Source: Massalongia carnosa (Eukaryota). From it: a stretch of 64,000 nt of DNA. Below the pieces are notes generated by a model that was not told the origin of the DNA, ran no database searches, and saw only the letters and a list, made by a program, of their open reading frames with translations. Position numbers and translations under genes: made by a program. Positions 7,534 through 46,884 of the stretch are shown piece by piece. The DNA is taken from positions 1,240,001 through 1,304,000 of the forward strand of contig OZ287078.1 of the NCBI GenBank assembly GCA_965645245.1. The letters run 5' to 3'. Every line of letters begins with the position of its first letter. Position 1 is the first letter of the stretch.

Positions 7534-8459
7534 GATGTGATAAGCTCTGCCTGGTAGTTGTCAAAAAGATCTTTTTATGTTGATCGCATTTGTTGCAAGC
7601 TTTCTTCTTTGAAGCCACACCAGACCGATATTCTGGATGGCCTTCTTGTGTTTTATACTCCGATCCTTTCTTAGCATTTCCCCCGCTACTCCATATTTCT
7701 GACGTGAGCTCACTTCTGATCTAAAGGATGCAAAGCAAAAACGTAATGGTGCAAATGAAACATCCTAGCGCGCAGCAACGAATGCAAAAAAAGGACCACC
7801 TATATGAGATTACCAATCCCTTGGTAATCTCGGAATTCGGTTGATGATGGTATAGCACGGGCTCCTGAAGACGTGGTTCTTCTTCGTTCGTCATAAACTT
7901 AATCAATCTATGCTTCATGCAAGTACGTTGAAGCGAAAAGCAACGATTCTCTTCTAACCGATCGCAAGAGACGAGAGAAGGTGAAATGAAAGAACTGGAG
8001 CCTAAAAATTCATAGAATGACCATACATACTTGCAAATCAACAGTTTGCCTTGCGTCGGCTATTGAAAAAGACATGATATCCGCTAAAATCTCGATTATG
8101 ATGACCACCATGGCTTGGGAATAAACCTTCAGACCATGATTAGCCACATGCAGTTTAACAGCCACGCCTAAAGATTGTTCCTGTTGTATGAACTAAGGCC
8201 GAACAGAAGGCGGTTGTAACGCGAGTGCATACACGAATAACGCTGGGGCTGATGGGGTTAATGGGGTTGAGGGTTGACTCTGAAGTTGATTGGATGATGT
8301 CATAACCGCAGCTGCCAAGACTCTCAAACGCGCGGGTATTTTCAACGGAAAATAATTATTCCGATTCTTCAACGAAATTATTCAAACCACCTCACCAGGC
8401 CACAATCAAATTCACAAACCCCAAACCCTTGAGCTTCCCCCATTGGCCTCTCGAAGCAA

Positions 8460-20431: not shown

Positions 20432-22124
20432 CGAAGGATGACGCTGAAAGTCCTTGCTAGCGTACATGAGACGTGCATTAGTGTTTATTAGCTTACAAGG
20501 GGAATACAGTACTAAAATAGTCTAGAAAATCTCGAATTGCTTCTGTTCTCTTCGTCAAAAAGACAGTACTACTACATCTAATATTCAGTAGAAGGTATTA
20601 ATCATCATCATTATCATGCCCAATGCACAGAGCAATAGTCTCACGATTGCACAAAGAATACAGGCTTTAGCGCTTGTAGAACACGGAATTGCGGCGAAAA
20701 TCGTGCAAGAAGTGACTGGAGTCTCCACAAGATCGATTTCAGCTCTCAAAATCAAAGCACGACAGCGTGGATATGATCCAGTTGTATCTCGTGTTTAAAA
20801 AGTAGAATACATAGAAGATGCACCTCGTTCAGGACGACCTAAAAGGTTACACCGGAGGTAGAGCAAGCTATATTCAATAATGTAGTGCAAGATCGAAATA
20901 GCAGAGAAAAATCATCAGCTATGATTGGCTTTGATCATAAACTCTCCTCCACTACTATACTTCGTACGCTTAAACAGAATGGGTTTCGCCCCTGTAAAAG
21001 CACGAAAAAGCCAGGTCTAGATTCGATCATGAAAGAGGCTCGTCTGCAATTTTGTTTGCGATATCAGCACTGGACTATTGATGATTGGAAGAACGTTATA
21101 TGGACTGACGAAACAAGCATTATATTGGGTTCTAGACGTGGAAGAAGACTTCAGTGGCGTACCTCGAAAGAAATGTATGCTAAAACTTGTATTCGACGTA
21201 GATGGAAAGGATGCTCCGAGTTTTTGTTTTGGGGATGTTTTTCGTACGATAAGAAAGGACCTTTTCATATCTGGAAAACAGAGACTGCAAAAGAGAAAAG
21301 AGAGGCTCAAATTGAGTTAGATAAACTCAATGAGACTTTAGAATCAGAAGCTAAAGAGAATTGGGAGTTAGAAACCAGCATGAGACGAATGAAGCTACGT
21401 AATCCAGGAGGTCGAAAACCTATATGGAAATGGGATAAAACACACGGTAAAGTCGTTCGAGATGGCAAGGGAGGTGTGGACTGGTATCGTTATCAAAAAC
21501 TCGTCTTAATTCCTAAGCTTCTTCCGTTTGCAAAAGAATGTATAATAGATCGACCAAACACTATCGTACAGGAAGACAAGGCCCCCAGTCACGCATCCAA
21601 ACATCAAAATCTGATCTTTATGGATTTCAACGTCATGCGTCTGTTATGGCCTGGAAATTCTCCTGATCTGAACATGATCGAGCCTTGTTGGTTCTGGATG
21701 AAGCGAAGAACCACTCGATTAGGTGCTCCGCGGACTCGTATTGAGGCTGAAAAGGCCTGGACAAAGTGCTGGACGGAGGAGTTGACGCAGAAAAGAATTC
21801 AGTCCTGGATTGAACGTATAAAGCGACATGTTGACGAGGTGATATTGTTGGACGGAGGTAACGAGTATAGAGAAGGTAGAGAGATCGGAGTCGTACGACC
21901 GTATAATAAAGAAGATCGCCGTTTTCGATATCATCGCGCTCATCTCAAAGAAAGTACTGACAGCGATGAATGTGAGTGATAAAGATGATAGAGGTGGTAA
22001 CTCTAAATAGCTTCATGCGATTATTCGATTGATTGATATGTATATCCATGCAAATATACCCATGTAAAGTGGCTTTTTTAGCTGCATATTTAGCGTTAGC
22101 AAGGACTTTCAGCGTCATCCTTCG
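20432..22124 (+). mobile_element. Full-length Tc1-like (DD34E) DNA transposon, 28 bp perfect TIRs, TA target-site duplication
   Basis: CGAAGGATGACGCTGAAAGTCCTTGCTA at 20432-20459 and its reverse complement at 22097-22124; TA at 20430-20431 and 22125-22126. Confidence 0.95.
20616..21979 (+). pseudogene. Tc1-family transposase with one stop (TAA 20796-20798) and one frameshift near 20845
   Basis: HTH N-terminus, DAPRSGRPK, IWTDETS, QEDKAPSH, WPGNSPDLNMIE; 34 residues counted between the second D and E. Confidence 0.9.
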
Positions 22125-28341: not shown

Positions 28342-29963
28342 CCTTTCCAGAGCTTCTTTCGGCGTTGTCGATGACCTGTTGCTTTTTCAATGCGGCCGCT
28401 TTAGCTCGGTCCAAGACCTTCTGTGCCTTTTCCACCTCATCTTCATGTCGTTTGGTGACTTTAGCACGTACATCTCGAACGGTGATGACCCCACCTGACT
28501 GAGCAACAGTTCCAACAAGCTTTTTACGCGCTACCTTAGCAATTGAGGCTCTGGCTGAGGTCAATAAGTCTCTTTCAGCCAATTGCTGAGCATGAGCGCT
28601 AGCCATAGCACCTTTGAAAAAGCGATCGACATGCAACCTATAATTTCCGTCGATAGCATCATTTGTCTGCATGCTTCTTTGAAGTTTAGTGCCAAAGATG
28701 ATGACCTCAGTGGAAGTGCGAGGTGTTCTGGCCAATAATGGGGCCGACGGTGGGGGTGGAGGGGTAGTCGGCTTTGACGACTTTGCGCCTCGATTTTCGA
28801 GATGACCACTTTCGGATTATAAGGCACTAGTCCTGTGTTTCTGAATGCAGCTAAAATCGTCGAGTGAATGTTTTAAGGCGCATATCCTGAAAAATCGACA
28901 AAAAGTCGATCTTGTTGAACTCCCCTCCACGAATAGCCTCATCAATGGCCTCAGCTTGATAGTGTTTAAAAGGCTGAAACCATCCAACGTCCAGTGGTTG
29001 GGTCAAATGAGTGGAATGAGCAGGTAATCTGAACAATTCGATGTGCTTGCTCTGTGCATACTCGAAAAATTCATACGTCATATGAGATTCATATCCGTCC
29101 AAAATCAACAACCTCCATGCACCAATTTGCCCTTTTGCACTATGTTTATCAAAATGTTTCAACCAATCAGTAGCGAGATCATCATTCGAATAACCAGTTG
29201 AACTGACGGCGAAAAGAATGTCATCATCCAAATCATTGTCCAGGGCCCATTTCTCTTTGATTTGTACGCCAGGAAGTATGATCATGGGGGGAATATCCCT
29301 TCCTCCACCACTACTACTCTCCACCGAGGTAATGTAGTCTCTGTTGTCTGGATCCTTCATCAAAAGAGGCTTATGAGAATGAGTCGAAATTACCCAATGA
29401 GCTTTTCCACAGCCAATTCGAAAGCCCGTTTCATCCATGTTCCAGGTGTCCTCGTCAGCGATTCCCCTCAATTCTCGAAGGACCTTGTACTGCTCAAAAT
29501 GCTTTATCATACTCTCCGAATCGTGTGAATGTTTATGCTCAACAGCGAGGGGTTTTTGTTTACGTTTGAAGTACTCCGGATGACGTTTTAAAAATCGTCT
29601 GGTCCACATGGCGCTTACGGTAGGAAGTGGAGTGTCGGTTTGATCACGATCAATTTGTCCAACTAATGCTCGACCGAGCAGGTAATTAGCAGCTCCACGA
29701 ACCATCGAGAGCTTAGCTGATTGTTCCATATGATCCAATCGCTCAATATAAGCACAAATAGCTCATTCTCGTGCATCTGTAAGTGCTTTGTTGCTTGGTG
29801 AACGAGTTGATTTCGAAGCCCCTCCATTGAGCCTTCGACGAAGTGTCCTCGAACCGACGTGAAAGTTTCGAGCGATAGCGCTGGCACTAGAATAATCACC
29901 ACTGTTATACGCGCTGATAGCCTCATCTAGACGATTTTCAGAGTCCCAGAACGAATCAGACAT
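28341..29963 (-). mobile_element. pogo/Fot1-family (DD35D) transposase, disrupted and 3'-truncated
   Basis: N-terminal HTHs, WTRRFLKRHP, TWNMDETGFRIG, LLILDGYESH, HLTQPLDVG (35 residues between second and third D), AFRNTGLVPYNP. TGA at 29763-29765 and frameshifts near 28870 and 28750. Confidence 0.92.
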
Positions 29964-30090
29964 GGTGGTGTGGAGTAGGCACGCGTTTGGTGAAGGATGA
30001 AATAAATGGTTAATTTGGTCTTTGAACCGTTTTGGACTTTGAACCGTTGGGCACTAGTAAGCGAAAACGATTACTGGTGGTATGGCACGA

Positions 30091-30873
30091 TTAATAACAG
30101 GCTCCAAAATAGAGTCAATATAGACTCGTTGACTCATTTTCCCATTGTTATTTCCTGGAACCTCGTAAAAGTACAAATCGGACTTGTAATTCCACCCGAC
30201 CTTAGCCCAACAATGATAACGTTTTTGCACTGATTCTGGGGTTTCTTTCCCTTCCTGCATACAATCAAAGCAGTATCTTTCACCCGGACGACTTATGATT
30301 CGTAATTGACGTTGAGGTCCCTGTCCAAAATGCACTTCATCACTGAAGCGTACCAGCTTCCAGTCCTCGAGAGTGTACGTGCATTTCATTTCTCTGGCAA
30401 ATGTACGTCGTTTAGCACGTATATTCGGAGACAGCCATGTTCTCGTGCATGCTAAACACTTGTGATAATCCAAGTCCTGCATAGCTCTTCGAACGGTATG
30501 CCAATGTACGTGATTTGCCCCTATGAGACCCACTTCCGCAGCTAATTCATGCCACGTTTTAGCTCGTGCTTGTATGCCTCCATTTTCTGATCTCCTGCAT
30601 CTTTTGAATGTACTCAGCTGCTATGAGTTTCTTTCTTCCTCGCGTTTCCGGCCTGTTTGAATTGTTATGAAGACGTCGAGAAAAATCATCTTTGAGCATT
30701 GCCCATCCCCTGCTCCGTTCCACTCCAAAATGACGAAAAACGTCGCTTTTGAAATAGGATATGCCGTGCGCCTTGTTAAATTCGCACACAGCTTGTACTT
30801 TGGCTTTAGTAGGTGTAGAGTACTCATGTTGAAAATCATGAGACTCTAACTGAGGTGTTTGTTGACGTTGCAT
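30091..30873 (-). pseudogene. N-terminal half of a Tc1-type transposase (HTH, first catalytic D), frameshift near 30580
   Basis: YSTPTKAKVQ, ETRGRKKLI, TVRRAM, DWKLVRFSDEVHFG, RPGERYCFDC, HCWAKVGWNYKS, GKMSQRVYIDSILEPV, then homology stops. Confidence 0.85.
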
Positions 30874-32877
30874 GATGATTGAATTGTTTGCCCGCGTGCG
30901 AGCGTCTCCGTGAATACGAAGGACGCGTTAGCGGTTGCACTCTAGTGCATTCCGAATACTTTAAAATATCACCTTCGAAGGACTGAGATGCTTCGCTTCG
31001 TTTTGTTTGTAATCCTACCTCCGATGACGTAGTTAGCCGGTAGTTGCCCACCATGGCACGAGATTACGGAATGGAAATGATTCCTTTTCCATCCTTCCTG
31101 TGAACTCTCCAGAAGAACTACCAAAGACTTCTTATCATGTCAAACGTCCTCCTTGTTGATCTGATGCCTGCACCAACTGCTACTGGCCATTTTACAGCAG
31201 CTAAGTATCTATCGACACTCAATTGAAGCTTAGCTTCTATCGCACTTTTTACACGGACACAGGCGTTCACGCATTCAAACGTAGTCATGTACTGTGCATG
31301 GCGAGTCTATATTATCAGCATAAGCATCCTCCTGGGCAATGTTAAGTCGAACCTGAACAGAAGAAGGGGAATAGCAATGCAGTTGCTGACATGAGGTCTC
31401 CTCCGTTTCCACCTAGTGGCTTTAACATCTGCCATCACCTCATGGACTGCCTAGATGTGTGTACGTCGACCTCCCAGCGGGGCTGTTCCTTCTTCTTGAC
31501 CTTTTCGATTAGCTGCCCGGCTTCTTGATCGCACGCCATATGCCGCTGTCGTTGACTGCGAACCCATATGCTCCATAGCATGGAGTATCTACAAAATATT
31601 ACGCCTAATGGGAAGAGGTATGACAAACCCAACTATGCTGCAATGTAACATCATTCTTGTGTAACTTTCACTCTTCTCCTACGCCGTATCGATAAATTTA
31701 TTAATTTGAACTCTGGGGTTTTTCATTTCTGTTCGATTGACTGCTGACTCGAGTCATCCAATTAATTTGTCCTAACTGTGCATCTTACTCGCTTCGTTTT
31801 AAAAAAATTTTTACTCTCACACACGCAAGCCGAAGTCAAGTAGCCTCGTTCTCTTCCCAAAACTCTATTTCACCGCTGAGATCGCGACGCTAGAAATATC
31901 CTCATTCGGACTGTGGCGCATTCCTATTTCTCGATTATGGCGCGTTTCCTCGATTTGTAGAGGAGACTTGTCTGGGAAGCTCTTCCTTTCTAAGCTTTGT
32001 TTATCTTATTGAACCATTGACGTGGGAGATCCTTATCTATCTCCTTTACATTGGTAGCTGCGTGTCTTGTGCACTCACGCGTCGTCCTTCCCAAGAGGAA
32101 ATGCATGTAATAGCTTTTGCAGCATATGACGATCTTGCTGGAACCGACCAGGCTTGGCTTGAGATATAGAAAAGCTGATGCACTCGGCAAAATCGCCACG
32201 CTAAAATATATCCCTTTTAACACACCCTTTAAGCGTTAGAACTCATAGGTAGACGACGGCAGTTATATATCTGTTTTTCGACGCAGTAGGTTCTATAAGG
32301 CTGTACAAGATTTTGATACAACACCGTCATCGTGTCTGGCTGAAATATATATTCTTCATCATTTGGCTTACTCCTGAGGGTATACCAACTCGTATACCAA
32401 CTCTTGCTCAACAAAGAAAATGCTGTTGCTTGCCTTCTCCAGATCATGATTTAATGGCTTGTCTCATAGATCCTCGTTGATTCCGCCTGATTATCGCGAT
32501 TGAATCGAGGCGAGTCCGCATAATATGCCTCCCTGAAAGCGCTTTGATATTCTTATGATTGGTCTAGTCTATAGGAAAGGTTGATTTCTTCCAGCCAAGC
32601 TCCATTATTGTGCTGTCATTTGTCCATAGCCAGGACTAGCTCTGTGTGCACCTGCTGCTGCTTCGTCCTATTTCCATTCAAACATGTGCGGATCCTGCGT
32701 CATTTCTATTAAGTCTTTTGCTCCTTTCAAGTTTCCTTGCAACTAGTGTTGTTGAAACAGTTTGGCACGTTGTTGGGGGCTAGAGGCGGCATTGAGTTTG
32801 CCATAGTCTAGAGGGGAATGAAAGGTTGCTGTTGCTATTACCAAGCTGATCTTAGTGTGGACATCGACTTCGATCTA

Positions 32878-32972
32878 ATAAAAAAATATATAAAAAAAAA
32901 AGTCCGTGATCGTCATTGACTGAAATTTTCTTGAAAATGCCTACTTAAGTAGTCCATTCTGCTGTATATAGA
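32878..32972 (+). promoter_or_regulatory. Putative promoter elements of the ice-binding protein gene: A-rich tract and TATA-like TATATA
   Basis: A-rich tract at 32878-32901 and TATATA at about 32965, about 220 bp upstream of ATG 33185. Function inferred from position only. Confidence 0.35.
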
Positions 32973-33184
32973 TCTTGTTACTAGCTAGCATCCAGCAATC
33001 TTACCACCAACTTATCCAAATACATCTACGATCCTATCCACAGAACCTTCAGAGAGTCAACAGTTCCATCTTCAAAATAGTCCAATTCCTTCACCGATCC
33101 CACCCAGCTAGAACCTGCTCCAATCCATCCCATCCTACATAACACCCACCCTCCCCAGGCTCTACAACTCAACCCCAAAAGAAC

Positions 33185-33928
33185 ATGCCTCAGACACTCT
33201 CAATCCTAGGACTTCTACTCGTAGCGACAACCGCCCAAGCATTATCCCTCGGCCTCACAGCGTCAGGCTTCGGAGCCTGCGCCGCCACCACAATCACCAA
33301 CTCCGGCCTGACCGTCGTGAACGGCCCCATCGGTCTATCCCCCGGAAGCTCCGTCACCGGCTTCCCCCCCGGCCAAGCCAGCGCGATTGAAATCAACAGC
33401 CCGGCCGCCAGCAACTGCAAAAGCGACGCGCACACCGCCTACGGCAACGGCGTTGGCCTCTCCTCCACGCAGGTCCTTTCAGGGGTACCCCTCGGAGGCC
33501 TCATCTTGGGGCCGGGGGTGTACAGCTTCGCGACGAGTGCAGCCCTAGACGGCATCCTTACGCTCGACGGCAACGGCAGCAGCACCAGCCAATTCGTCTT
33601 CCAGACCGGCACCACCTTCGAGACCGCCGTGGCGGCCGCGATCCTCCTCCAGAACGGCGCGCGCGCCTGCAACGCCTTCTTCCTCGTCGGCAGCTCCGCC
33701 ACCATCGGCTCCGCCACCCACTTCAATGGCACCGTCATCGCCTACCAGTCCATTGCCGTCGGCACCGCCGTCGTCGCCGTGGGCGGCTTCTTCGCCGACA
33801 ACGGCGCCGTCACCCTTCTCACCAACGACTTGACTCCCCCGGGCACTTGTCTCCCGTTGGAAACGCCCGGAGGGGGGTCGGTGTTGTCTATTGGGGTGGG
33901 GTTGGGCATCGGAGCGGGTTTAGCATAA
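33185..33928 (+). CDS. Secreted DUF3494 (IBP-1 fold) ice-binding/antifreeze protein
   Basis: 247 aa, intronless; signal peptide; TTITNSGLTVVNGPIGLSPGSSVTGFPPG, AHTAY, LGGLILGPGVYSF, LTLDGNG..FVFQ, LQNGARACN..VGSSATIG..FNGTVIA..SI, GAVTL. Confidence 0.93.
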   Translation: MPQTLSILGLLLVATTAQALSLGLTASGFGACAATTITNSGLTVVNGPIGLSPGSSVTGFPPGQASAIEINSPAASNCKSDAHTAYGNGVGLSSTQVLSGVPLGGLILGPGVYSFATSAALDGILTLDGNGSSTSQFVFQTGTTFETAVAAAILLQNGARACNAFFLVGSSATIGSATHFNGTVIAYQSIAVGTAVVAVGGFFADNGAVTLLTNDLTPPGTCLPLETPGGGSVLSIGVGLGIGAGLA

Positions 33929-35455
33929 AGCCCGGTAGGGATCGCGTGGTGGCGGCGTTTCGCTCGGGGGGGAGGGTCGGAAGAAGGAAAGTTTTAGGGG
34001 GAAGGGGGAAAGGGGGATGCGTGAACGAATTGGTGGTGGGAAGGCGGGAGGCGGGGGGCGTGGGGATAGGGGGGATGGTGGTGGGAGCTTGGAGGTTTAG
34101 GGGGGGTCTCCTGGCAAAGCGCCTTTGGCAATAAATCATTGGGTTCTTAATACATTGGGGGAGTTTCCGAGCGTGCGAAGCATACATACATGCAGATTTC
34201 CCCCATCGTCACTCGCTCTTTTCCCCCTCACATCTACTCTAGCTATGTATTCGTACATACAGCAAAGCCTTTCGAAATCTTCTATTTTTTTTCTCGTGCA
34301 TCGATTGGTTTTGATTTTGATTTTTCGCTTCGTGCCGTACGTCGCATCTGTCTGCCCATGTGTATGTCCGATTCGTAAATTTCGATTGCAGTGGGTTGGT
34401 AGATAGGTAGGTTGGTAGCTGCTTGGAATAAGTAAGAGGATAGAGAATAGAGAAACTGGCTTGGTTGAGTGGGTGGATGGGTGAACTTGGACATGAACAG
34501 CCAGCCAGCTAGCTAGCTGTCGATATTAATATCATATACACCCTGAACTCAGGATTAGCAGTTACCATCTTCGTGCAAGACCGCTTTACGGGGGGTAGGT
34601 ACCAAGGGAGCAGAGGGGAGCATGCAGAGAAGAAGACCTCAATACTAGGGGGTTCTTGCTTGATTGTCTTGAACCCGGCTATAGCTGCTGGAGTAAGCAT
34701 ATTACAAAACAAGTTATCCAATGTATTGGAATTTGCCGAGATACCTGAATAGTTGCGACGGAGGTTCTTTTGCCTCCTGCTTACTAATTTCCAGATTAGG
34801 CAATCATAGTTATGCTATGCGAAAAGCTTCAGATATCGGCACGACTTCGGCAACTACGAGGAGGCAAAGGTATGCAGCAAAAATGCTATATTTCGGAGGC
34901 AATTCAGCTGTTCATGATCACTGAGTGTCTCGGTGTCTCCGGTCAGCGATAAGGTGTATTTTGCCCAGCTGAAAAGGTTCAAGGGAAGCAGGTTCATGCA
35001 TTTGATATAGGCCGAGATGGAGGCCCTCAAGCAGTATAAAGAGACGGTGATTCCTCATGTAATTTAGCTATTCAGTCGTTCAGAATTCATTTCAGCAGAT
35101 AGCTAAATTTGGAGTATCTTCACTGGAAATACGGAGTACCTGCATCACGTTTGCCAAGCACTTCTCTTTGCCTATCCTTGATAGCCCTAGACCCTCTTCT
35201 CCTGCATCCCGCTGCCGTATGCCTGGTTGATTTTTTGTTCAACAATAGCTACTTTAATCAGCCAGAACTAGGTCTTAAAGATCAGCCAGATATATTTTGT
35301 ATATCTTTGTATGTATTTAGAGTAATTGGAGAAAGCTCCTTCAATCTCCCCTTAAATTCCTCCTTCTCCTCCCCATTCCCCTTATTTACAGACATTCATC
35401 GATCCATCCCTCCCTCCATCCTCTCTTTTCTCCCACTCTTCGTCATGTGTATAGA

Positions 35456-35512
35456 CAACAATAACAACGACGACGACGACGATGACGACAACAACACCAA
35501 CAACAATAACGA
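35456..35512. repeat. Compound (AAC)/(GAC) trinucleotide microsatellite
   Basis: caacaataacaacgacgacgacgacgatgacgacaacaacaccaacaacaataac, downstream of the carboxypeptidase gene. Confidence 0.85.
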
Positions 35513-35870
35513 ACGAACGAAAGAACGGAAATGGTAATGAGGATGCGAATGAAAATGAAAATGCGAGCGTTGTTTGTTGGTCGAGGGAAGAGGAAAGGAG
35601 GAAGAGAAGGGGAAAGGAAAGGGGGAGGGAGAAGAAGAAAAAAGACGACTGTCCGACTCAATATCTGTGTACGTACGGTATACGAAACGAAACGAAAGGG
35701 AGATTTATCGGGTGTTTTCTACTATGTACAGAAACCAGCAAATCCCTGTGATATTTCCCATCGAAGTGACCGTTGAATGCAATACATATAAGAGAGACAA
35801 ACCCCCACCGACTCGTCTATCTAATTCCCCTCTTACCCCTTCCTACCCCCCCTCCTCACTTCTCAAACCC

Positions 35871-37543
35871 CTAAGTAGAGCTCAGCGGCTCCCCCTTCAT
35901 CGTCTGCACAAAAACCTGCAACGCCAATTTAGGCGTATAAAACGGCACCTCATGGCCCGCGCCGAACACGCGCAAAAAGCTGAAGTTATCTTGAGTCTTA
36001 AAGGTGCCGCCCGCGGCGCCATTGACCGTGTAGCTGGTCAGGGGCTTGGCTTTGAAGGCGGCTTGGCCGGGGTAGGTGACGGCTTCGGCGGCGACTTGGT
36101 TGCCGATCCAGTTGCAGATGTAGTCGGCGTCGCCAGCCCACTGGGTGGAGATTAGGGTTTTGGGGGGCTACAGGGGGGAATGGAGACGTACTACTACTGT
36201 TCGCACGCCGGCGTTGACAACAGCGGAAAGGGCCGGAAGGAAAGTGCGAGAACCTAGTGCTAGAGATTAGAGAGTAGGTTCCAAGATGGAAGGGATGATG
36301 AATGCGCAGAGAGAAGACTTACTGTCTCCGGTTGCGGCAAACTTGTCCCCAGGCGCATTGGCGCACTGCTGGTAAGTGCTCTTCGCCCCAATCGCTCGGA
36401 CCACGGACGGGTCTGCAAGATATTGACTATATGTTTTCGGGGGATTAGGATCATCGCTGCCAGCCCGAACATCGTAAACGTCGAAATCCGCCTCCTGTGT
36501 CAAGGCGCCCTCGATGCCCTGGTAACAGATATCATCGGCGCGGACGCAGGCGGCGTCGCTCCCAGAACTCCGGCATGCCTGCAGCGCGGGAATGCATTCA
36601 TTTTTTAAGACGTCGAGGTATTGCTGACGCTGGGAGGCGGTGATGATTTGCTTGTAGGGGTTGTTGAAGCTGTAGTCGATGTAGGATTTCTCTTGAAGGA
36701 GAGAGTCAAACAAGCCGTCATTGACGCCGAGCGCAACGAGTTTGACGTTTTGGCCGGTGACGGAACCAGCGGTTATCGCAGCGTTTTGCTTGTCAAAAAA
36801 GTCGGCAAACGCGGGTCCGTAGTCTTTCCAGCCATGTCAGCTGGATGATACTGATGCCATGATCATCCGCCACGACGGTGTATTACTTACGTCCGCCATA
36901 TGATTCGGTCCAGATGCCAAACTCTCGGCTTTCGTACTGGGGGAATTGGTCATAGAACGCTTGCAAAAAGGTCCAGACAAACGGCGCGGCAGTAGCAGTC
37001 GACGTGACTGGATCATCACCATAGGAGAAGCCCACCCCAATAGGCTGGTCAATGTATAGCATGTTGGCATAATTATTCCAGCTGTATGGATTGAGTGACG
37101 GCGTCGAGGCGCCATTGAAGAATTGGCATGGGCCGTTTTCTTGGAAGAGCCCAATCATGCTGGAGCAGCCCGGACCTCCATTGAACCAGGTGGCCAGCGG
37201 CGCCGTGGTGGGATTCTGACGTGCCTCGAAACTGTTCCAAGGGTGAGAGGAGCCAATGAGTGGGTCAGCGGACGACTCACAACCAAAACCACATGTTCTC
37301 GTTAGGTCCGACGGATAGATACCCTGAGTATTGATTCACGCCCGGGGTGGTCTCGCAGATGCCGGAGTTGGTGACAAACTCCATCTTCGCACCCGTGGCA
37401 GCATGTTCGAAGACGGTGAAATTGGTGCCATCCCGCTCAACAAAGGAGCGCTTGTTCTTGGAGCTAGGTTCACTGGGGAAAGGCGATGCAAATGTGAGGC
37501 CGCCCAAGGTCAGACCGGACAGCAGTTGAGTAGAGAAGCGCAT
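35871..37543 (-). CDS. Secreted serine carboxypeptidase (S10, carboxypeptidase S1-like), 5 exons (37543-37281, 37231-36891, 36823-36323, 36253-36192, 36140-35871)
   Basis: Signal peptide; ICETTPGVNQYSGY, WFFEAR, WFNGGPGCSSM, YIDQPIGVGFSY, ESYGGHYGP (Ser), WAGDADYICN (Asp), GAGHEVP (His). All four introns are GT-AG and splice in frame. Confidence 0.95.
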
Positions 37544-39520
37544 ATTGGATGCAGGGATGGGCTGGAGACGAATGAGTGGATTGCGAACATCACTCCCACA
37601 GATATGACCGCCATCTTATATAGACATGGAATTCAATACAGTCGCTGGCTCTTCTTGGCGACTGCCCTCGCTGCATTGGTAGAATAGAGCAGGTGCATGT
37701 CAACGAGGAAGGACGTTTTCCAGCATGCTTAACGCTCCGAGGTTCGATATCGATTATCGTCGCCACACGAAGACATTTTTTCTGGTAAGACAGCAACTGG
37801 ATAATTTGTGGTAGGTAGACACGGGGTGCATTTTGGCTAGATAACTGAGATATCTAAGCCAACATCCTCTTTGGGATGATCAGCCGATTATCTGGGATGA
37901 GAACTCAACACAATCCAAGCGACATATGGATTGGTAGGATCGAGTAGCCAGAATGTAGGTCGGAAGGTGGCAGAGAGACGAACTCATCGTGCTGCTGATT
38001 TCGAAAATGCAAGAACATTCTTGCTAGTCACTGGTGGTGATGCTTAAGTAAGCATACGATTCGTCGGTTTTCATACTCGAGATGCGGGCTACCAACTTCA
38101 ACAACATCGTTACTTTACACCGTTAACGTGACGATTGGTGAACGTTGCTGGCCTTCTCATCTTGCTCGAAGTTCTTTTACTTCCTTCCTCTTTCTCTAGT
38201 ATGATCTCGAGTGCGATCTGCCGTCGAGCCGTGGTGATCCAAGACATTCTCTTTCCTAATTCAGGAATGGTCCGCAGCATACATGCTCAAATCGAGGAAA
38301 AATAACAAATGCGGTCGATGCCGGAGGCTGAAGGCGATGTCGGCAAGTCAATCACGGAACTTCTAGAATGCTGCAGTTGCTTCTATCGAGATGGCGCAGA
38401 ATGGCGTTTGAAGAACGCCGAATATTGTACTTCGTATCCTACTTCCACATTGAGCATAGCCTCCACACTTTCTACAGGATCGGTTTATCTGGACGATCTC
38501 CGTCGGCCTCCATCAGGAGAAGAAGCTCTAAATTTCTACTCGGTACCAAGAGCGATATGCCAAGCATATGAGACCGAAGCCCTCAAAATATGCCAGTTTC
38601 GTGCGTATGAATCGCCCACTCGAAGGTGATTTATGGGCTCGAATCCAACAGTTGCTTGCAGCTTCTCGAATCTACCAGATCCCTTGAGTGTACCCCTAGT
38701 CCTTGGACTTACCAGTTACCGTTTCCAAAGATGCGTCCTTAAGTGCTTCATCATAAATAACCAGAACCTACAGTGTAGCTTGTGTCGGTTCTATTATTTG
38801 CGGTCATCTTTCTTCAGGGCAAACCTGTGCTTGTCCTTGATGCTAGATTCTTCCTTGTTTTCTAATAATGGTTGATCTCGTGACTCTGGCTTGTTTTACA
38901 GCTGTTCATTAGCTTAAGATATAAATCGGTTTCAAATCGTGTATGCAACGAAAGACAGCAGTCAAATACCTTGTTTTCATGACCCGTCCCTTACAAAAGC
39001 TGAAACGTGTTATTCAAGGCCAATCTACTTGACAACTTTTGAGAATTGGAGCGTGTTTTGACCCACGTTGCCAGTATCGTACAGTAGAGCTAAAATTTGT
39101 CGATATGTAAGCTATTTCTATCTATTAACGCCGATCACCTGGCTGCAGCTCCTCACTGAATTCCTCACAAGCATTGGAAAATATCAAAATAAGATAAGCC
39201 GCGTCGTGCGTGTTTCCTGCCAAGGTCAAAAAGGGAGTTATGAGTAAATACGATTAGAACCGAGTGCCATTCCGAGAACTAATACATGGTAAGTGGCCAA
39301 TCGTCGCAAGTCCAAATGAAAGGAGTAAGCTAACCTTGAGAGTAACATAGAGTAATTATTGCCTGAACCGATAAACGGCAAGAGGAAATCCATGTTTGTT
39401 TCGGCTAAGTGGCTAGTATTCTGTCCGTCAGCACAAACGATTATACTTGCTAGAAGTATTTCTACCTTGAACCTAGGTATATTTGAAACTGATGCATGAC
39501 ACTTCTGCGTTTTTAATCCC

Positions 39521-40207
39521 CTAGACTCTTGGCCAGTAATACCCGTCAATAGCATGGGTAAACTCTCTCAACGCAAGGCAGAGTTCGTGCACTTCCGGCC
39601 CTTCCCTCTGGGCGGTGTACCGAAGGGCAAATTCCTTGAAGCGGTCATCCAGACCTGCAAGCAGACAGGAAACAACAACCCAATCGTCAAGTGGGAAGCA
39701 CTCGTCAAGTATGGTTTGCCGGCAGTACTTTATGTCGCGGATGTACAATTCTATCGAGCCTCCACGCGACGCAAGAGTGATATGAGACATCGCCTGGAGA
39801 AGGCGATGCGCAGTGGTGAAACCTACGCCGAGAAAGGAAAGTCTCAGAAACTTCCATACTTTCATTGCAGACTTCTGGGAAGGGTCGATCGAGCCAGCAA
39901 TCTCGTCGCTGCACTTGCTCCGTATGAGCCCGATTGCTGTCTTATGCTGTTGCTTCCGTTTCTTCAAAGCGTCCTCGAAGATTTCCCATAGGATCTCGTT
40001 GGTATTTTTTACCATAACCGTTGTTCCATCAGGCTGAAGCGCCGGCACCTTCGCTGGTTCATTCGGGATGTCATTCGACTCAACAACATGCCACAGCCGA
40101 TCAAACTCCAACGCAATTCTGATGGCGCGCGCCCAGTTACGATAATTTTCCGTGCCTGTCAATCTCGGGAACTGCCACCGGGGGCCGATTGGTTCTTCGC
40201 GGTCCAT
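39521..40207 (-). mobile_element. Ty1/copia retrotransposon gag ORF (relic element, no intact pol seen)
   Basis: FPRLTGTENYRNWARAIRIAL..LWHVVE..AIGLIRSKCS..SAMKVWKFL..LLAGLDDRFKEF is the copia gag (Retrotran_gag_2-like) pattern. ATG at 40207. Confidence 0.85.
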
Positions 40208-42398
40208 GACTTTAGGTGAGCTCTTAGCCAATGATCTGAAAGGAGATTATGGCAAGGTGACAAAAGAGGACCGATGAAGCAGCGGACCAGAGTGTATGGA
40301 GATTTGTGATGCTTTTGTGATGATGGGTTATGAATTTGTATTAGTCCTACGGATTTATATAAATCCACCTAATCTCCGCTGCGTAGGGTGACGATATGAG
40401 ATGTTGACGCTATGACAGTTAAGGTTGGCAAGTTGATGTGTCTCTACTTTTGATATGTCTTTCGTCCTCTCAGTAGCTTTTGTCCACCTCTCACTCATCA
40501 AAATATCTCATACGACATCTTATGACAGATCCTCATCACCAAGCCCACAGGCGATCAAGGACCCTTGATCAAGGGCTCTCAAGCCTTAAGAACTCCTGAT
40601 ATTCATCCCTAAAACATAGAAGAATCTTCAATTTTAAGGTATAGTGAAGTATCTCTGTTTATCTTTCGCCCCTTCATTTCTCTTTATATGCTTCCCCTCC
40701 AATTTTTTACATGAGTATAAAATCATCTTACATACCACTAGAATTCCAATCAACTCTTGAGAAAATATCGTGAAGCCACAGCATTTTTCGAAGAGATACA
40801 CCTCAGGCAACCTTTTTCCATCTCGGGGGTCGTCGGGCCTGTGTGAATGTGTCTTGAGACGGTGCAATTGTCGTAGAATGATGGAGCGTCAAGCAAAATG
40901 CGCTGGAAAAATGCAACAGTCTCACGTCCTTTGTAGATACAACCAGTCGAGTTCACGCGAAACACAGAACCACTGACATCTCCGATCCACTGACACTTCT
41001 ACGTATACCCAGACAAAGGCTAGAACCATCCTCGGAAGTACTCCTTATGACAAGACAAGGACTTCAAAAGCCTTCTCACATACCAATCACCCCTTTCGTG
41101 CCCCTCTGGTTGCTTTCCAGCTCTTTCTTCAACCTAATATTCTGCCTAACCCGCAACAACGCACGCACTATCGTCATTGTAGACACCATCTCATTGTCAC
41201 CAACCTTCAGACATGTATCGCTCTTGCAACCCAAAAAACGAACCCCTCAAACACATTGCAGCTTCGCCGCATCCATATATATCCATATCCAGATTACGAG
41301 CAGAGCGGCAGAGAGAGGACGTGGGTGAACAGCTCCGAAACCAATCAATTAATCGGATAATCCTCACTACCACTTCCTGACTAAAACCATCTCTTGGTTT
41401 CCTGGGAGGTTTGGTGCAGGATCAATAAATACGCGGGAAGGAGTCGGGAGGGTTTATGAACAACATGATTGGAGGAAAGGGGGGTATACATAAATACTCA
41501 TCCTCTTTCAGCAAAGAGTCCATACAATGAGCATTTAATGTCAAATACAAAATGTACACAAATGGACACTTGAACGTTTCCCCTACCTACCTACTTAATC
41601 TTACCATACTTATCCACCCAACCTTCCCCCCTCCCCTATCCTACCCCATCCCTATTCCACATACATACCCACCTCTAATATATCCCTATCCGCTACCCAC
41701 CACCCACCACCCGCCACCTATCAATCGTCCCATCCATCCCCACCATCCGGCTCAACTCATCCTCTGTAATGATTTTGCGAGGCCGCTCTGGATCCAAGGT
41801 ATGTACTTGGCTTGGGTTGGAAGGGGGAAAGAAAGAAAGAAAGGAGATGTTATATGTATGTATATCCATATATGTACCTACATGTCTAAATACCTAACCA
41901 CCTAACTGATCAACCACGCAAGGCCATCATCATCACCACATCGAATCAAATCGGGTAAGCAAAAATGGAAGGAGGGGGAGGGGAGGAGGGGGGAGAGAAT
42001 CCCAAGACTCTGAGCAAGTAAGCGAAAGTCGGTCGCCTGGATTGTATTATCCTAAAGAGCTTCGTATGGCTAAGGACCTAGGGTAGGTAGGTAGTAAGTA
42101 GGACCTTCTATAGAGAGATAGGACGGACGCGTAAATACGCGTGAACTTTTCTCTTTGCAAAGCTGAGAGAGTAACCCCCCGGGACCAACAATGTACGCAA
42201 AGAAAACGCATGGGAAATGCTCCCCTCGTTCTCCCATCAACGAATCTCTAAAACGCCACCCATAATTCCTCCTGCCCCCCAAAAACACCCCCTGGTGCGA
42301 AATCTCGGCCCTCTAGAAAAAATCTCAAGGGTCGACACATGTCGGGAAATAAAACGCATTGTTACACATTGCTGTTGCTGAAGCCCCAAATTCTCTCG

Positions 42399-45300
42399 TT
42401 AATCATCATCGCTTGCCATGCCGCTGTCCCCACCGTTCGTGTAGCTGTCTCGGTTTCCATTGAAGGTGATTTTTAGTTTCGTTTGTCCAGCCAATGTCAT
42501 TGGCGTGCCTACGCTCGAGACGGCGGCCGTGGAGCGACCATCGGCAGGAGTGGAGCTAGGGTCTTCAAAGTCCTGGAGTTCGGGGTAGTTTCGAGTTTCT
42601 TCTTTGAGTTTGGCGATACAGGCAGCCTATTCCTTGGTCAGCGAACTGCATTGCAAAATGATATAGCAAACCCGGCTACATACCTCAATATCATTTGCAT
42701 CTTGGAAGAGTAAACTACCGTCCTCGTTGTATGTCCTGGCGTTGTTGCAAAGAAGTCGAATGTCATCCCTGAATTCCTTTAGGCTTTGATATTCCTCCTT
42801 ATTGATCTTCTTTTTAATGGTGTCCATGGCAACGGGAGACGTGATTATGATGTAGTAATCTGGGTATTGCGCTCTGGGCACTAGCTTGATAAAGGGATCA
42901 ATGATGCCTCTAGTAGGGGGTCCATCATCGTCATCATCGTCGGAAGGTTCACCTGGTATCTCTGCCTCAAGATCCATTAGATGCTGGTAAACGCTATTCA
43001 AAACCTTCTGCAGCAGAGTGCGTTCACTGGTACTCAACGTGTCGGATGCTTTCGATTGCCGAGCCCCCCGTTTTCGCTTCGGTGCTGGGACATCGTCCAT
43101 ATCATCCTCCGCTTTCCGCTTCCCGCCGTTAACCTTCCGCGAGCGCTTCTTCGGTGCCGGCACTTCAGAACTCTCTCTCGAAGGATCTGGTGAGCTGTCG
43201 TGCTTCCCTCGTTTTTCCTTGTTCGCGTTCCGCTTATCGATTTTCGCGTTTCTCCGTTCCACAGCAGCCTCGATGGTGTCCTCATCGTCGTCCACCGCCA
43301 TCAGCCACTGCTCTTCCGTAAGACCGTCATCGTATTTGACCCTTGTTCTTTCCCTTGCTCCCCGACCGGCTATCTCCTCAATTTCCTCAGCGACGGGGTT
43401 GTCTTCTTGTAGGTAAATGTCAGGAAGCTCGTTCTCAGCCATGAGACGAGGCAATTTCCGGTCTGGGCCGTAATCAGGATCTTTGGCTCGTTCCGCGTCA
43501 ATCTTCCGGAAGGCGATCAGCTCCTCGTCGGACCTGGCCATAATGCCGTTTAAGTAATCATCATCCATCTCCTCCTGCTCCTCGAGCTGCTCGGCAGCGT
43601 CCGCACTATCTAACAATGTCCGTAACAGCGCGTCTCGTTCTTCGCTGGTGGATTTGTTGTCAAATTTACCAGCCTGAATGACCTTGCCATCCATGTCCAA
43701 CTTATACTGCGCTCGCTCAAGGATCTTCTCCTCCACCGAGTTCGAACTGATCAGCCGCAGGATTCTGACTTCGTTCTTTTGGCCGATTCGATGGGCGCGA
43801 TCCTGAGCTTGCAAGTCCTGATGAGGATTCCAATCCGAATCGTAAATAATGACTGTATCTGCGGTCTGCAAGTTTAGCCCTAAGCCACCAGCACGGGTTG
43901 ACAGCAGGAAGCAGAAATAGGGCGAGTTTGGTGCATTGAAGAGAGTCAGCAACTCAGAGCGATCATCAGACTTCGTAGAGCCATCCAGGCGTAGATACTT
44001 TAGGCCGCGTAGTCGCAGAAAGTCCTCCATAATGTTCATTATCTGAGTCATCTGAAAAAACATCAAAACCCGATGTCCCGATTCCTTGAACTTGGGTAAG
44101 ATTCTATCAAGCAGCTCAAACTTGCCCGCGGTACGCCATAGCAAGTCGTTGGTGCCTTTGTCGGGGTTCATCTGCTCTTCGACTTGCTCAAACACGAACG
44201 GATGGTTGCATAGTTTCCGTAGCTGCATAAGCATGTTACTCAAGCCACGCATGCCGGTTTTCCCCCCTTTGCCATCACTGACAGACATCTTGTTATATGT
44301 GACTAGCTGCTTATAGAGTTTGGCTTGCAATGCTGAGAACTTGCATTTTATCACCGTCTCCTGCTTTTCTGGTAAATCCTTTTCCACGTCCTTCTTGAGG
44401 CGTCGCAGCAAAAACGGTCGTAGAACCTTGTGCAATCGCCGGATAACCAGCAGTTGCTCTTCTTCTGTAAGTTCCATCTTATCTTGCCCTCCAGTATTGG
44501 AAAAAGGTGTATTGAACCATTCATCAAAGGATTTGACCGATTTAAAAATAGTAGGAAGGACGAAGTTCAAGAGAGCCCAAAGTTCAGGAAGGTTATTTTG
44601 CAAAGGAGTACCCGTTAAAATAAGGCGGAAACGGGTGTTGTAGTACTGAGTGAGCGTGTTGCTCAATTTCGACTGGGCGTTTTTCATACGATGCCCTTCA
44701 TCAACGATCATATGGACCCATTTGATCTTGCTAAGGACCGGTCGATCTTTGATGATGTACTCATAAGTGGTCAACAGCACCTGGAAGTTTCCCCACCGAA
44801 TTTGCTGTTGCTGTTGCTTTCTCGCGTTTGGGGGTCCTTTGTATACCACCCGTGTTACCGAAGGCGCCCATTTCTCAAACTCAATGTTCCAATTCGTAAG
44901 TGTAGTTAGCGGCACTATTACCAGGAACGGACCATTCTGTTTCTTCTTTTCGATAAGGTAAGTTATCAAACTTATGGTTTGAATCGTCTTCCCTAGACCC
45001 ATTTCATCTGCAAGGATGCCGTTGAGGTTGTTGTTATACAGCGATATCATCCATTGCAGGCCCTTGACTTGATACTCCTTTAGCGTCCCACCAACCAAGA
45101 GATTTGGCTGCACCTTGATCTCTTCCTTGATGCGATGCGCTACTTGATAGTAATCTACCTTAGGGCCGTCCTCCACATCATCTTCGCTATCGCTGATGTC
45201 TTCATCGGGAGGGTTGTCATCGCCATAATGTTCAGCGGCATTGCGCTGCTGTTGCTTTACGGATGCGGCTAGCTGACCTAAAAATCCATCGGTTTGCTTG

Positions 45301-46884
45301 AGCAAGTGTGATATACGTGAATCCTTTGCTTGACCAAGAAGCTTTAGATAAGTTACTTCATCGTTTGCCTTCAAAGCTTGCAGACGCTGCTTTGCCGTCC
45401 TCTCTACCCGTTTTTGCTCCTCCTTTTCCATAAGCTGGTGATGCGTCAGCATCATGCGACCAAGCTTCTGCGCTCTGGCCCGCTGGGTTCCAGCATTTTT
45501 GCGTATTTCAGAGCCGTGCTGTAGGATGGACTGAAGATGGTCGATCTGTTTCTGCTTTTCCTTTGTCTCCCGAGCGTCTCGTTGTTGTTTCTCCAATTTC
45601 TCGGTGATTCGAGCTTCACGTAAGGATTGTTTCTTCGTTCTCCTGTACATGGAGCGGTTTGCGGTTTGAGCTAGGTTATCATAATGAATCACGTCCCTAT
45701 TGACTTGTTGGCGTAGGCTACGCTGCTTCGGCAGCAAGCTCAACATCTTGAATTCGATCATAGCTTTCAACTTGAGCCTGTCGTTGACTTGGGCCATCTC
45801 CCCAGCACTCGTATCCCACTCCGCTAAATCGGCCCTCATATCTTTAAGCTCCGTATGGCGGGCCTGTATCCGATTGAATATAACACGATCCCGCTCCTCA
45901 CGAACCCGATCTACATCAACGCCACTAGGCATGATGCTAGGAATCATAGGCCGCTTAGCTCTTGTTGCATGATCCGTGTAGCTTATAGCGGTATCCAGAT
46001 AAGTGTAAGGATTCTTGAACGTTTTATACATCGACAGCATCTTGGGTGTCTTATCTGCTTTGGACCTGACAGGCTGGGAGAGGTGAGCTGCTTGAGAGGC
46101 ATTCTCAAGCACCTGACCAGCGGCAGAAAGCGCTTGTGCAGTCGTTTCTGGACGTTCGGCCTGCTGAGACGCAAAGAGCTGTTTCTGTATGTCGGGTGGA
46201 ATAGGCTTGTTCTTCGTTAGTATTTGGAAGGCGACGATCTGGCTGCGAAGGGTGTTCATTTGGTCTTGAGTGAAACTCGCTGGGGTGATCGGTGGTTTTT
46301 GTGGTGTCCCAGCCGGTTTCCCTACGGCTCCCAGCGACTGGGTTTCCGAATTTACAGGCGAGGTAACTGGAGCAACTTGTAATGAAGCTGAAGCTGGCTT
46401 GGCGGGATTGGCGGCCACTGAAGACATAGCAGCTGCTTGTCCTGCTTCAACCGAGTCAGACAGCTCCAGCAATATCGAAGAATCCACGTACCATTGACTC
46501 CATTACCAGCGTTCTGCACACCGATCGCCTGAGGCTGAAGGGGTTGATGCTGTGGAGCCTGCTGTAGGGCTTGCTGACGTTGGCGGGCATAATTCTTTGA
46601 TTGGCTAATTGCGGCCAATATGTTGTATAGCTTAACATACTCGGGATCGCTTTGAGGTACACCTTGGTCTTTCAACTGCTTGAACCTCTACAGTACCATT
46701 AGAACGCGCGAAAAAATCGAATAGATGTGGAAGCGGAAGTGTAGAGAGAGTGTAGGATGGGGACCGCAAGACCCAGATGTGCTTGGCTTACACTGTACAT
46801 CTCATGCGCTTGGCTCTGTGTGAGGTTTGGGGGGATCATGGGCCCACCCTGCGGCAAGGTGGAAGCGGTCTGCACCGAGGTCAT
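42399..46884 (-). CDS. STH1: SWI2/SNF2-family chromatin remodelling ATPase (RSC Sth1/Snf21 type) with QLQ, HSA, helicase, SnAC and bromodomain; exons 46884-46792, 46687-46492, 46441-42684, 42626-42399
   Basis: GILADEMGLGKT, VDEGHRMK, LTGTPLQN, STRAGGLGLN, QAQDRAHRIGQ, YDDGLTEEQW, YPDYY..NARTYNEDGS. Confidence 0.93.

Follow-up and report, generated by a model that had tools for sequence, protein, structure and literature searches.

The closest characterised relative of the protein described here is AnpIBP, an ice-binding protein (IBP) of the Antarctic ascomycete Antarctomyces psychrotrophicus (isoform 1a, PDB 7BWX/7BWY), whose DUF3494 beta-helix with a long flanking helix recurs in the model presented below. 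Excerpts of PMC7277481 describe microbial IBPs including AnpIBP as secreted, report a glycan on N55 of AnpIBP and cite a proposal by Arai et al. (2019) of a bacterial origin of AnpIBP through horizontal transfer. According to the same excerpts the ice-binding site of AnpIBP lies on the B-face, and the mutations S153Y and T156Y cut thermal hysteresis to 17% of wild-type. In this study we analysed a DUF3494 gene in a 64-kb stretch of contig OZ287078.1 (positions 1,240,001 to 1,304,000; hereafter the window), which a preliminary description made from the DNA letters had put forward as a candidate for horizontal transfer, with motifs of actinobacterial type. In our judgement it is probably a resident gene of a lecanoromycete fungus that belongs to a subclade of the ascomycete DUF3494 family; any transfer from bacteria would be ancient, the product would be a secreted ice-adsorbing protein and its C-terminal tail would have arisen by loss of a stop codon. 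The DUF3494 identity, the non-basidiomycete type and the lichen host of the preliminary interpretation were thus borne out, and its recent transfer and actinobacterial affinity were not.

Domain, fold and predicted ice-binding face

The open reading frame (ORF) is intact and intronless over its 247 codons, as had been stated, and a Pfam search agreed with the family assignment made from the letters. The product matched PF11999 (Ice_binding, DUF3494) with 151.7 bits (E 2.8e-44) against a gathering cut-off of 28.7. Since a single stretch spans profile positions 3-207/208, the domain is complete, uninterrupted and free of introns. Every motif quoted in the preliminary description was found again in the translation, namely SPGSSVTGFPPG at residues 52-63, NGARACN..VGSSAT at residues 157-173 and PPGTC at residues 218-222. 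With 56.8 bits against a cut-off of 400, the window protein is no member of the bacterial equivalog NF045625 (IBP_CFB) of NCBIfam. The best scores in the ESM Atlas were 0.86-0.88, under the 0.9 level, and all came from PF11999 clusters; we treat them as leads only. The predicted leader has a mean Kyte-Doolittle hydropathy of 1.8 over residues 5-19 with AQA at 17-19, and residue 20 is the first to align with the crystallised AnpIBP chain. Two N-x-S/T sequons are present (N130 and N181). A tblastn search of the window revealed no second copy of the gene. One allele was recovered from run X4 (P0001, on a 3586-base contig), which is identical at 246/247 residues, differs by A116T and keeps the whole ORF.

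An AlphaFold (AF2) model based on a 17-row alignment reached a mean predicted local distance difference test score (pLDDT) of 82.5 and a predicted template modelling score (pTM) of 0.79. It has a long helix (residues 73-90) accompanied by some twenty short strands; residues 1-16 and 226-246 are unstructured with pLDDT below 50. In a Foldseek search the best match was 7bwx_A (E 3.9e-17, TM 0.94 by target, root-mean-square deviation 1.2 A, 203 columns, 42% identity), and ranks 1-30 were all DUF3494 ice-binding proteins. By profile score and predicted fold the window protein is a member of PF11999. Residues S170 and T173 correspond to S153 and T156 of AnpIBP, because 7bwx and its S153Y mutant 7bwy differ at the first serine of VGSSAT. 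Both AnpIBP residues that are needed for ice binding are conserved in the window protein, in a comparison that covers the two positions mutated in the excerpts of PMC7277481.

In the proposed mechanism, the leader would direct the protein out of the hypha, and the triangular beta-helix would present a flat face rich in Ser, Thr and Ala, to which S170 and T173 (VGSSAT rung) contribute. When the thallus freezes and thaws, this face may adsorb to ice in the water-filled matrix and thereby limit the growth and recrystallisation of crystals.

Nevertheless, the same fold may do a different job. A secreted or surface-bound beta-helix might serve mainly in drying protection of membranes or walls, in adhesion or in matrix structure, and we consider this unlikely, though it is the strongest of the alternatives. 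Lichens dry out routinely. Moreover, the fungal holders of the family include Trichoderma, Tolypocladium, Monosporascus and Didymella, which are not known to be cold-associated, so that ice binding may not be the general role of the family; this weighs against our functional reading, as would a tail that anchors the protein to the surface. On the other hand, every solved structure among the top 30 Foldseek matches is described as ice-binding or antifreeze, and the two residues required for AnpIBP activity are conserved. Besides, ice binding and an alternative role do not exclude each other. A link to drying has been described in excerpts of PMC13398936, according to which ice-binding proteins improve the dehydration resistance of C. 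elegans.

How wet lichens survive freezing has hardly been linked to particular genes. In the excerpts on Umbilicaria retrieved by a term search, antifreeze proteins are no more than a passing remark and no gene is named, and the searches made for DUF3494 genes of lichen mycobionts found no paper. The gene and its clade offer a concrete, testable candidate for freeze tolerance in the fungal partner. We regard it as a sound candidate of this kind and not as a surprising transfer event.

The ascomycete family and the question of transfer

A word-indexed protein search gave 752 proteins at E <= 1e-5 among 8000 candidates scored. The top matches (P0002-P0004) were 69-75% identical to the window protein, the protein of Vezdaea acicularis 61%, and the series continued to about 52%; bacterial proteins followed at 43-50%. 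The family is very large, since an exhaustive search of 50%-identity representatives returned 10,183 proteins at E <= 1e-3, in a library that carries no organism names. Named bacterial genomes held 35 matching loci. The best 13 of these (45-51% identity) were all from Chloroflexota, after which came nine loci of Actinomycetota with 40-45% identity.

A profile of the fungal-type clade (A3) listed 120 proteins, 26 of them with an organism name, and these comprised 23 ascomycetes and 3 bacteria. The named ascomycetes are Acarospora (55%), Trapelia, Icmadophila, Xylographa, Vezdaea, Venustampulla, Stipitochalara, Cudoniella, Scytalidium, Diplocarpon, Lachnellula (three rows), Pseudogymnoascus (three), Trichoglossum (two), Monosporascus, Tolypocladium, Trichoderma, Didymella and Boeremia, which presumably represent six classes; the classes given for homolog-bearing fungi throughout, like the class Lecanoromycetes for the host, are our assumption. 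In a metagenome scan 80 loci were retained of 577 relatives. The best was 55% identical, and relatives of 60-75% were absent from that collection. Only one retained locus, L002 on a 194 kb contig, lies in a fungal context, with eukaryote-type neighbours (PRELI-like, L-PSP, ankyrin/NLR-like and Sulfotransfer_4 genes). Another locus, L001, is a 4616-base metagenome contig that encodes a DUF3494 protein of 55% identity, extended at its C-terminus by a long Thr-rich segment; in the tree it joins L009 close to the base of the bacterial side.

Three trees were calculated, all of them unrooted: a quick tree of 110 rows (aligned sequences), a quick tree of 144 rows to which named fungi were added, and a careful tree of 85 rows whose supports are given as ultrafast bootstrap/Shimodaira-Hasegawa-like approximate likelihood ratio test (SH-aLRT). 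Proteins of more than 345 aa (two-domain forms such as P0144 and P0411-P0418; P0485 of Diplocarpon; P0032) and the long-branched L102 and L104 were left out. The second and third trees keep only L001, L002, L003 and L009 of the metagenome loci, and AnpIBP and the basidiomycete IBPs stand outside the trees. In the 110-row tree the window protein fell into a 17-row clade (SH-aLRT 99) within a 22-row clade (98), with all named bacteria on the opposite side. In the 144-row tree it belonged to a 79-row clan (SH-aLRT 89), in which 17 of 17 named rows are ascomycetes. The careful tree placed it in a 5-row clade (99/92), which lies in a 21-row clade (100/100) together with Vezdaea and L002, and this in turn in a 24-row clade (95/94) that adds Acarospora, P0011 and P0058. 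Among the named rows, 19 of fungi and 23 of bacteria, the label fungus or bacterium needs only two changes on the tree, and the well-supported branches force one change.

Judged from these trees, the gene was not acquired by this genome alone; it is part of a fungal subclade within a patchily distributed ascomycete family. The subclade comprises 24 or more clusters of sequences (90% identity), including the homologs of Vezdaea and Acarospora. The broad ascomycete clade that the preliminary description had named as evidence against its proposal was largely recovered; the synteny named together with it was not, as the window shares nothing except the IBP gene with L002, the sole relative with flanks.

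This lack of shared neighbours is one of several points that weigh against the placement. Organism names are attached to only 2 of the rows in the 24-row clade. Support for ascomycete monophyly in the quick tree is moderate (SH-aLRT 89), and the other 65 rows of that tree unite all 37 named bacterial rows with five fungal ones (Trapelia, Scytalidium, Didymella, Boeremia and Trichoderma). Moreover, four lineages meet at one multifurcating node of the careful tree, where ascomycete monophyly is unsettled. These are the 24-row clade, the pair Didymella and Boeremia, a 20-row ascomycete clade (100/100) that we take to hold Leotiomycetes, Sordariomycetes, Geoglossomycetes and Lecanoromycetes, and a 39-row group, with Trapelia and Scytalidium as its first branches, followed by all bacteria.

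Membership in the subclade might also be explained by transfer from fungus to fungus among lichen symbionts in place of descent with losses. We hold this to be rather improbable. Vezdaea, which presumably belongs to another class, stands beside the 5-row group of the window protein in the 21-row clade, and other presumed Lecanoromycetes (Xylographa, Icmadophila and Trapelia) are found in other clades. Together with the patchy distribution and the absence of synteny to L002 this would fit such a transfer, but several paralog lineages with differential loss yield the same pattern. A comparison with the species tree is impossible because the 24-row clade has only 2 named taxa, which we count against this explanation as well.

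A recent transfer straight from an actinobacterial-type bacterium into this fungal genome or its immediate ancestors appears very improbable. The GC content at third codon positions (GC3) of the ORF is 0.81 and lies above all nine native ORFs of the window (0.43-0.67), which confirms the strong preference for C/G-ending codons noted in the preliminary description and speaks for an import, as do the similar values of Actinomycetota homologs (0.80-0.97). However, the nearest bacteria are Chloroflexota with a GC3 of 0.43-0.65, below that of the gene, and the fungal homolog L002 likewise prefers C-ending codons, with a share of C at third positions of 0.50 vs 0.25-0.38 in neighbouring genes. Codon composition was therefore rejected as a transfer signal, as it does not discriminate. 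The intronless gene is flanked by mobile-element relics and shares motifs with bacterial proteins, whereas its closest relatives (52-75% identity) group in one clade with the lichen fungi Vezdaea and Acarospora and with the fungal-context locus, and 23 named ascomycetes were recovered by the profile. No named bacterium exceeds 51% identity, and well-supported branches separate all of them from the gene. The start context (AAGAACATGC, with A at -3) and the upstream stretch are of eukaryotic type. Nor did the actinobacterial affinity hold: when the 24-row clade and the five named Actinomycetota rows were forced together, the topology was rejected (log-likelihood difference, delta lnL, 91.2; approximately unbiased test, p-AU, 0.011). 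A native family member had thus resembled a fresh bacterial import because of its high GC3, its lack of introns and its transposon neighbours. The main value of our analysis is corrective, as a phylogeny with named fungal homologs removes the reading as a fresh import.

Membership in the fungal subclade implies that any transfer from a bacterium to a fungus long predates this genome. For the ascomycete family as a whole, an old bacterial origin is plausible. It is the natural reading since a huge and mostly unlabelled diversity surrounds a small grouping of named fungi; what counts against it is that, the trees being unrooted, the direction is taken only from the size of this diversity (the 10,183 representatives). 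An ancient transfer agrees with the proposal published for AnpIBP, so that the idea is already in print.

A separate observation concerns P0463 of Trichoderma viride. Together with P0028 it forms a pair (100/99) that is nested among Chloroflexota and apart from other ascomycetes. This could reflect a separate recent transfer or contamination, and P0463 is a better transfer candidate than the window gene.

Residency in the fungal chromosome and host

The stretch is contained in five public runs from three studies, and one run is labelled 'lichen metagenome'; none of the nine runs retrieved was an RNA run. Contigs of four runs (X1 and X2 of study P1, X4 of study P2, and X5) were mapped to positions 29000-44000 of the window. 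The gene was carried by contigs of 3.0-3.8 kb that cover 30945-34010 in X1, 30945-34750 in X2 and 30945-34528 in X4, each with more than 2 kb of low-GC, ORF-poor DNA upstream. Adjacent fungal contigs begin at 35217-36674 and extend over 51 kb (X2) and 46 kb (X4). The depth of the gene contig equalled that of the adjacent fungal contig in three of the four runs (769 vs 884 in X1, 428 vs 405 in X2 and 24.7 vs 26.4 in X4); in X5, the depth of 1.8-9 was too shallow for a comparison. In the window itself, native fungal genes stand on either side of the gene and in one sequence with it. With this linkage and the equal copy depth, the gene is a resident of the fungal chromosome.

No short-read contig of X1, X2, X4 or X5 crosses 30890-30945 or about 34750-35217, which at first sight weighs against residency. 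As both intervals are repeats, the failure to bridge them is uninformative, and the direct linkage of the gene rests on the window assembly itself. An assembly chimera or contamination, in which a bacterial fragment of the lichen microbiome was mis-joined into the fungal contig, is the least credible explanation of all, for although lichen samples are metagenomes and the short-read contigs of the gene end at repeats on both sides without reaching a native gene, runs of two studies share the 3.0-3.8 kb contig, whose depth tracks that of its neighbours over a 30-fold range; the start context is of eukaryotic type, 2.2 kb of non-coding DNA ahead of a 247-aa gene would not fit the gene density of bacteria, and the nearest homologs are fungal. 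In X2, one contig joins 30974 to 33997 and skips 3022 bases including the gene. This junction is probably spurious since its shorter side is 20 letters long and it occurs in one run only.

The host was placed with the STH1-type chromatin remodeller of the window. For its N-terminal 470 residues the nearest named protein was 'RSC complex subunit (Sth1) [Lasallia pustulata]' (66%), and the next named STH1 matches were Agyrium rufum (64%), then Sclerophora and many Teloschistales; other proteins reached 76-80%. On the basis of these matches the host is a lichen-forming fungus, which we take to be a lecanoromycete. The lichen lifestyle suggested in the preliminary description is in line with this, as the nearest named STH1 proteins are from lichen-forming fungi and with the label of the one run.

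Cysteine pairs, C-terminal tail, surroundings and known systems

Three cysteine pairs of the window protein's clade or of the family stood out in the 144-row alignment. Cys 32-78 occur together in 20 rows and never singly (20/0/0/123), only in the clade of the window protein, and Cys 89-167 (20/0/0/124) are confined to the same clade. The pair 162-222 is family-wide, with both residues in 104 rows, one in 16 and neither in 18. Different pairs covary in an ascomycete clade of 52 rows, namely 82-203, 49-65 and 52-76. Such covariation points to disulfides. The pair 89-167 is kept in 20 of 27 rows of the clade and its nearest neighbours, and its absence from the window protein is a further point against our reading; in the window protein, P0015, P0424 and P0427 both of its cysteines are lost.

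The window protein extends 25 residues past the conserved Cys222 (LPLETPGGGSVLSIGVGLGIGAGLA), as does its allele P0001, while the other members of the clade in the 144-row alignment end 0-6 residues past it. Third codon positions differ between the two parts of the gene: the tail (codons 223-247) has 52% G and 16% C, the body (codons 1-222) 14% G and 68% C (Fisher p = 7e-7). The base composition of the tail (G 45%) matches that of the 3' flank (G 53%). These values fit a tail gained by stop loss, in which the reading frame grew into the G-rich 3' flank, presumably a former 3' untranslated region (UTR). An ancestral stop codon after Cys222 would have been lost, and translation would have run on into the flank. 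The last 15 residues have a hydropathy of 1.97, with GGGS before them and no basic residues after them, and the tail extends 18 residues beyond its first Gly. It may tether the protein as a glycosylphosphatidylinositol (GPI)-type signal or a membrane tail, or it may be neutral. As a hypothesis, it resembles a GPI-type signal more than the bacterial anchors of other rows, which consist of a hydrophobic segment and basic residues; the GPI reading is tentative since the tail is short and has no clear polar spacer.

Similar additions were seen elsewhere in the family. P0063, P0433, P0436 and P0457 (Xylographa, Icmadophila and kin, in the other ascomycete clade) carry hydrophobic, Cys-containing tails of 19-20 residues, and Acarospora and P0011 have Ser/Thr-rich C-terminal extensions of 68-77 residues. 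C-terminal additions therefore recur in lichen-fungal members. The tail as a likely stop-loss extension and the loss of a clade-specific cysteine pair on both sides are new here, and we consider them small points. In a bolder and, to our mind, doubtful scenario, lichen fungi would hold their own expanded DUF3494 subfamily with private disulfides (Cys 32-78 and 89-167) for freeze-thaw and drying tolerance of the thallus, and stop loss would have made this member a surface-tethered (GPI-type) protein with its ice-binding face on the hyphal wall.

The surroundings of the gene are distinct in composition. The GC content of 33001-34000 is 0.618 vs about 0.42-0.48 in the flanks, and the GC3 of two transposase relics is 0.38-0.41. 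The low GC3 of the transposase and gag relics (20843-21979, 28851-30620 and 39521-40246) is compatible with repeat-induced point mutation. The transposon-rich interval of the preliminary description was recovered as Tc1/mariner, pogo, Tc3-type helix-turn-helix (HTH) and copia relics and a dispersed repeat around the gene (Table 1). This repeat is present as a single copy within the window and terminates every short-read contig that carries the gene. Its summed k-mer depth is about 300x that of the flanks in X1, X2 and X4; for X1 the summed depth in bins 34511-35512 is about 216,000-242,000 vs 769. No inverted repeats were found within 34400-35600, and the tandem repeats in 32000-36500 amount to one short array at 35585-35634, with none in the dispersed repeat. 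An Rfam scan of 28500-38500 gave no matches. The nearest native gene downstream, an S10 serine carboxypeptidase, is carried on the 46-51 kb fungal contigs of X2 and X4. It is read as two ORF pieces (36883-37335 and 36267-36836), split by an intron or a frameshift, and in the X4 allele one base is deleted at 36281.

Table 1. Features of the window and the evidence for each (window coordinates)
Feature	Position	Strand	Evidence and remarks
DUF3494 protein coding sequence	33185..33928	+	ORF list; ATG to TAA, 247 codons + TAA, single exon
Predicted secretion leader	33185..33241	+	Residues 1-19: MPQT, hydrophobic core, AQA; putative cleavage site
PF11999 ice-binding-like beta-helix domain	33281..33832	+	Residues 33-216; long alpha-helix at residues 73-90
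VGSSAT motif	33686..33703	+	Residues 168-173; S170 and T173 align with AnpIBP S153 and T156
25-codon tail past Cys222	33851..33925	+	Alignment, codon composition
Putative fungal promoter/5' UTR	33000..33184	+	C/A-rich, G 8%
G-rich 3' flank	33929..34130	+	G 53%; composition runs on into the coding tail
High-copy dispersed repeat, unclassified	~34724-35244	.	Run depth; loose contig ends at 34724 and 35244
Tc1/mariner relic	20843-21979		Pfam
Upstream pogo/Tc5 DDE_1 and HTH relic	28851-29762	-	Pfam; high, variable depth in runs
Upstream Tc3-type HTH fragment	30054-30620	-	Pfam; high, variable depth in runs
Copia gag relic	39521-40246		Pfam
PLD-like gene	8433-10103		Native fungal gene; Pfam
ABCC-type transporter	14333-19378		Native fungal gene; Pfam
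SUN-domain gene			Native fungal gene
S10 serine carboxypeptidase	36270-37335	-	Nearest native gene downstream; PF00450, E 1.3e-43 and 2.1e-05
SNF2/STH1-type chromatin remodeller	42627-46502	-	Pfam; native gene used for host placement

Among known systems AnpIBP is the best sequence match in the PDB (E 1.5e-34, 123 bits, 42% identity), and it scores below the 120 proteins listed from the word-indexed search, all of which reach at least 141 bits. With P0461 (Pseudogymnoascus) as a proxy, which gives only 109 bits against 7bwx, it is no close member of the Pseudogymnoascus clade either. Both proteins have a flexible C-terminal segment; that of AnpIBP is basic and amphipathic (K206, R209, K212 and K215), whereas the tail of the window protein is Gly-rich and hydrophobic. 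Moreover, Y131 of AnpIBP corresponds to A148 in the window protein.

Closer in sequence are the lichen-fungal DUF3494 proteins of the same clade (Vezdaea acicularis P0005, Acarospora aff. strigata P0421 and P0002-P0017), with 52-75% identity. They share the layout of leader plus domain and Cys 32-78 and 162-222 with the window protein. In contrast to it, members of the 21-row clade end at most 6 residues past Cys222 and most keep Cys 89-167. The other ascomycete clade (Pseudogymnoascus, Lachnellula, Tolypocladium, Trichoglossum, Xylographa and Icmadophila) belongs to the same family with 40-52% identity. Its proteins have a secreted single-domain layout of about 240 aa and Cys 162-222 as in the window protein, but they form a separate clade (100/100) with covarying cysteines of their own, as listed above.

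The nearest named bacterial relatives are the DUF3494 proteins of Chloroflexota (Chloroflexia, Herpetosiphonaceae, Anaerolineales and Ktedonobacteraceae), with 45-51% identity. TGFPPG, ACN..VGSSAT and Cys 162-222 are common to them and the window protein. Their stop-to-stop frames are 255-807 aa in length with long extensions, and branches with supports of 95/94 split them from the clade of the window protein. In other bacterial rows the C-terminus is a hydrophobic segment with basic residues behind it, unlike the tail described here. The basidiomycete IBPs, TisAFP of a snow mould (3VN3/5B5H) and LeIBP of an Arctic yeast (3UYU), share the fold (TM 0.71-0.75 by query) and are distant in sequence (22-26% identity). 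They score 34.6-34.7 bits (5b5h/3vn3) and 45 bits (3uyu) vs 123 for AnpIBP and 111.5 for 6eio, which supports the earlier statement that the window protein does not resemble the basidiomycete type.

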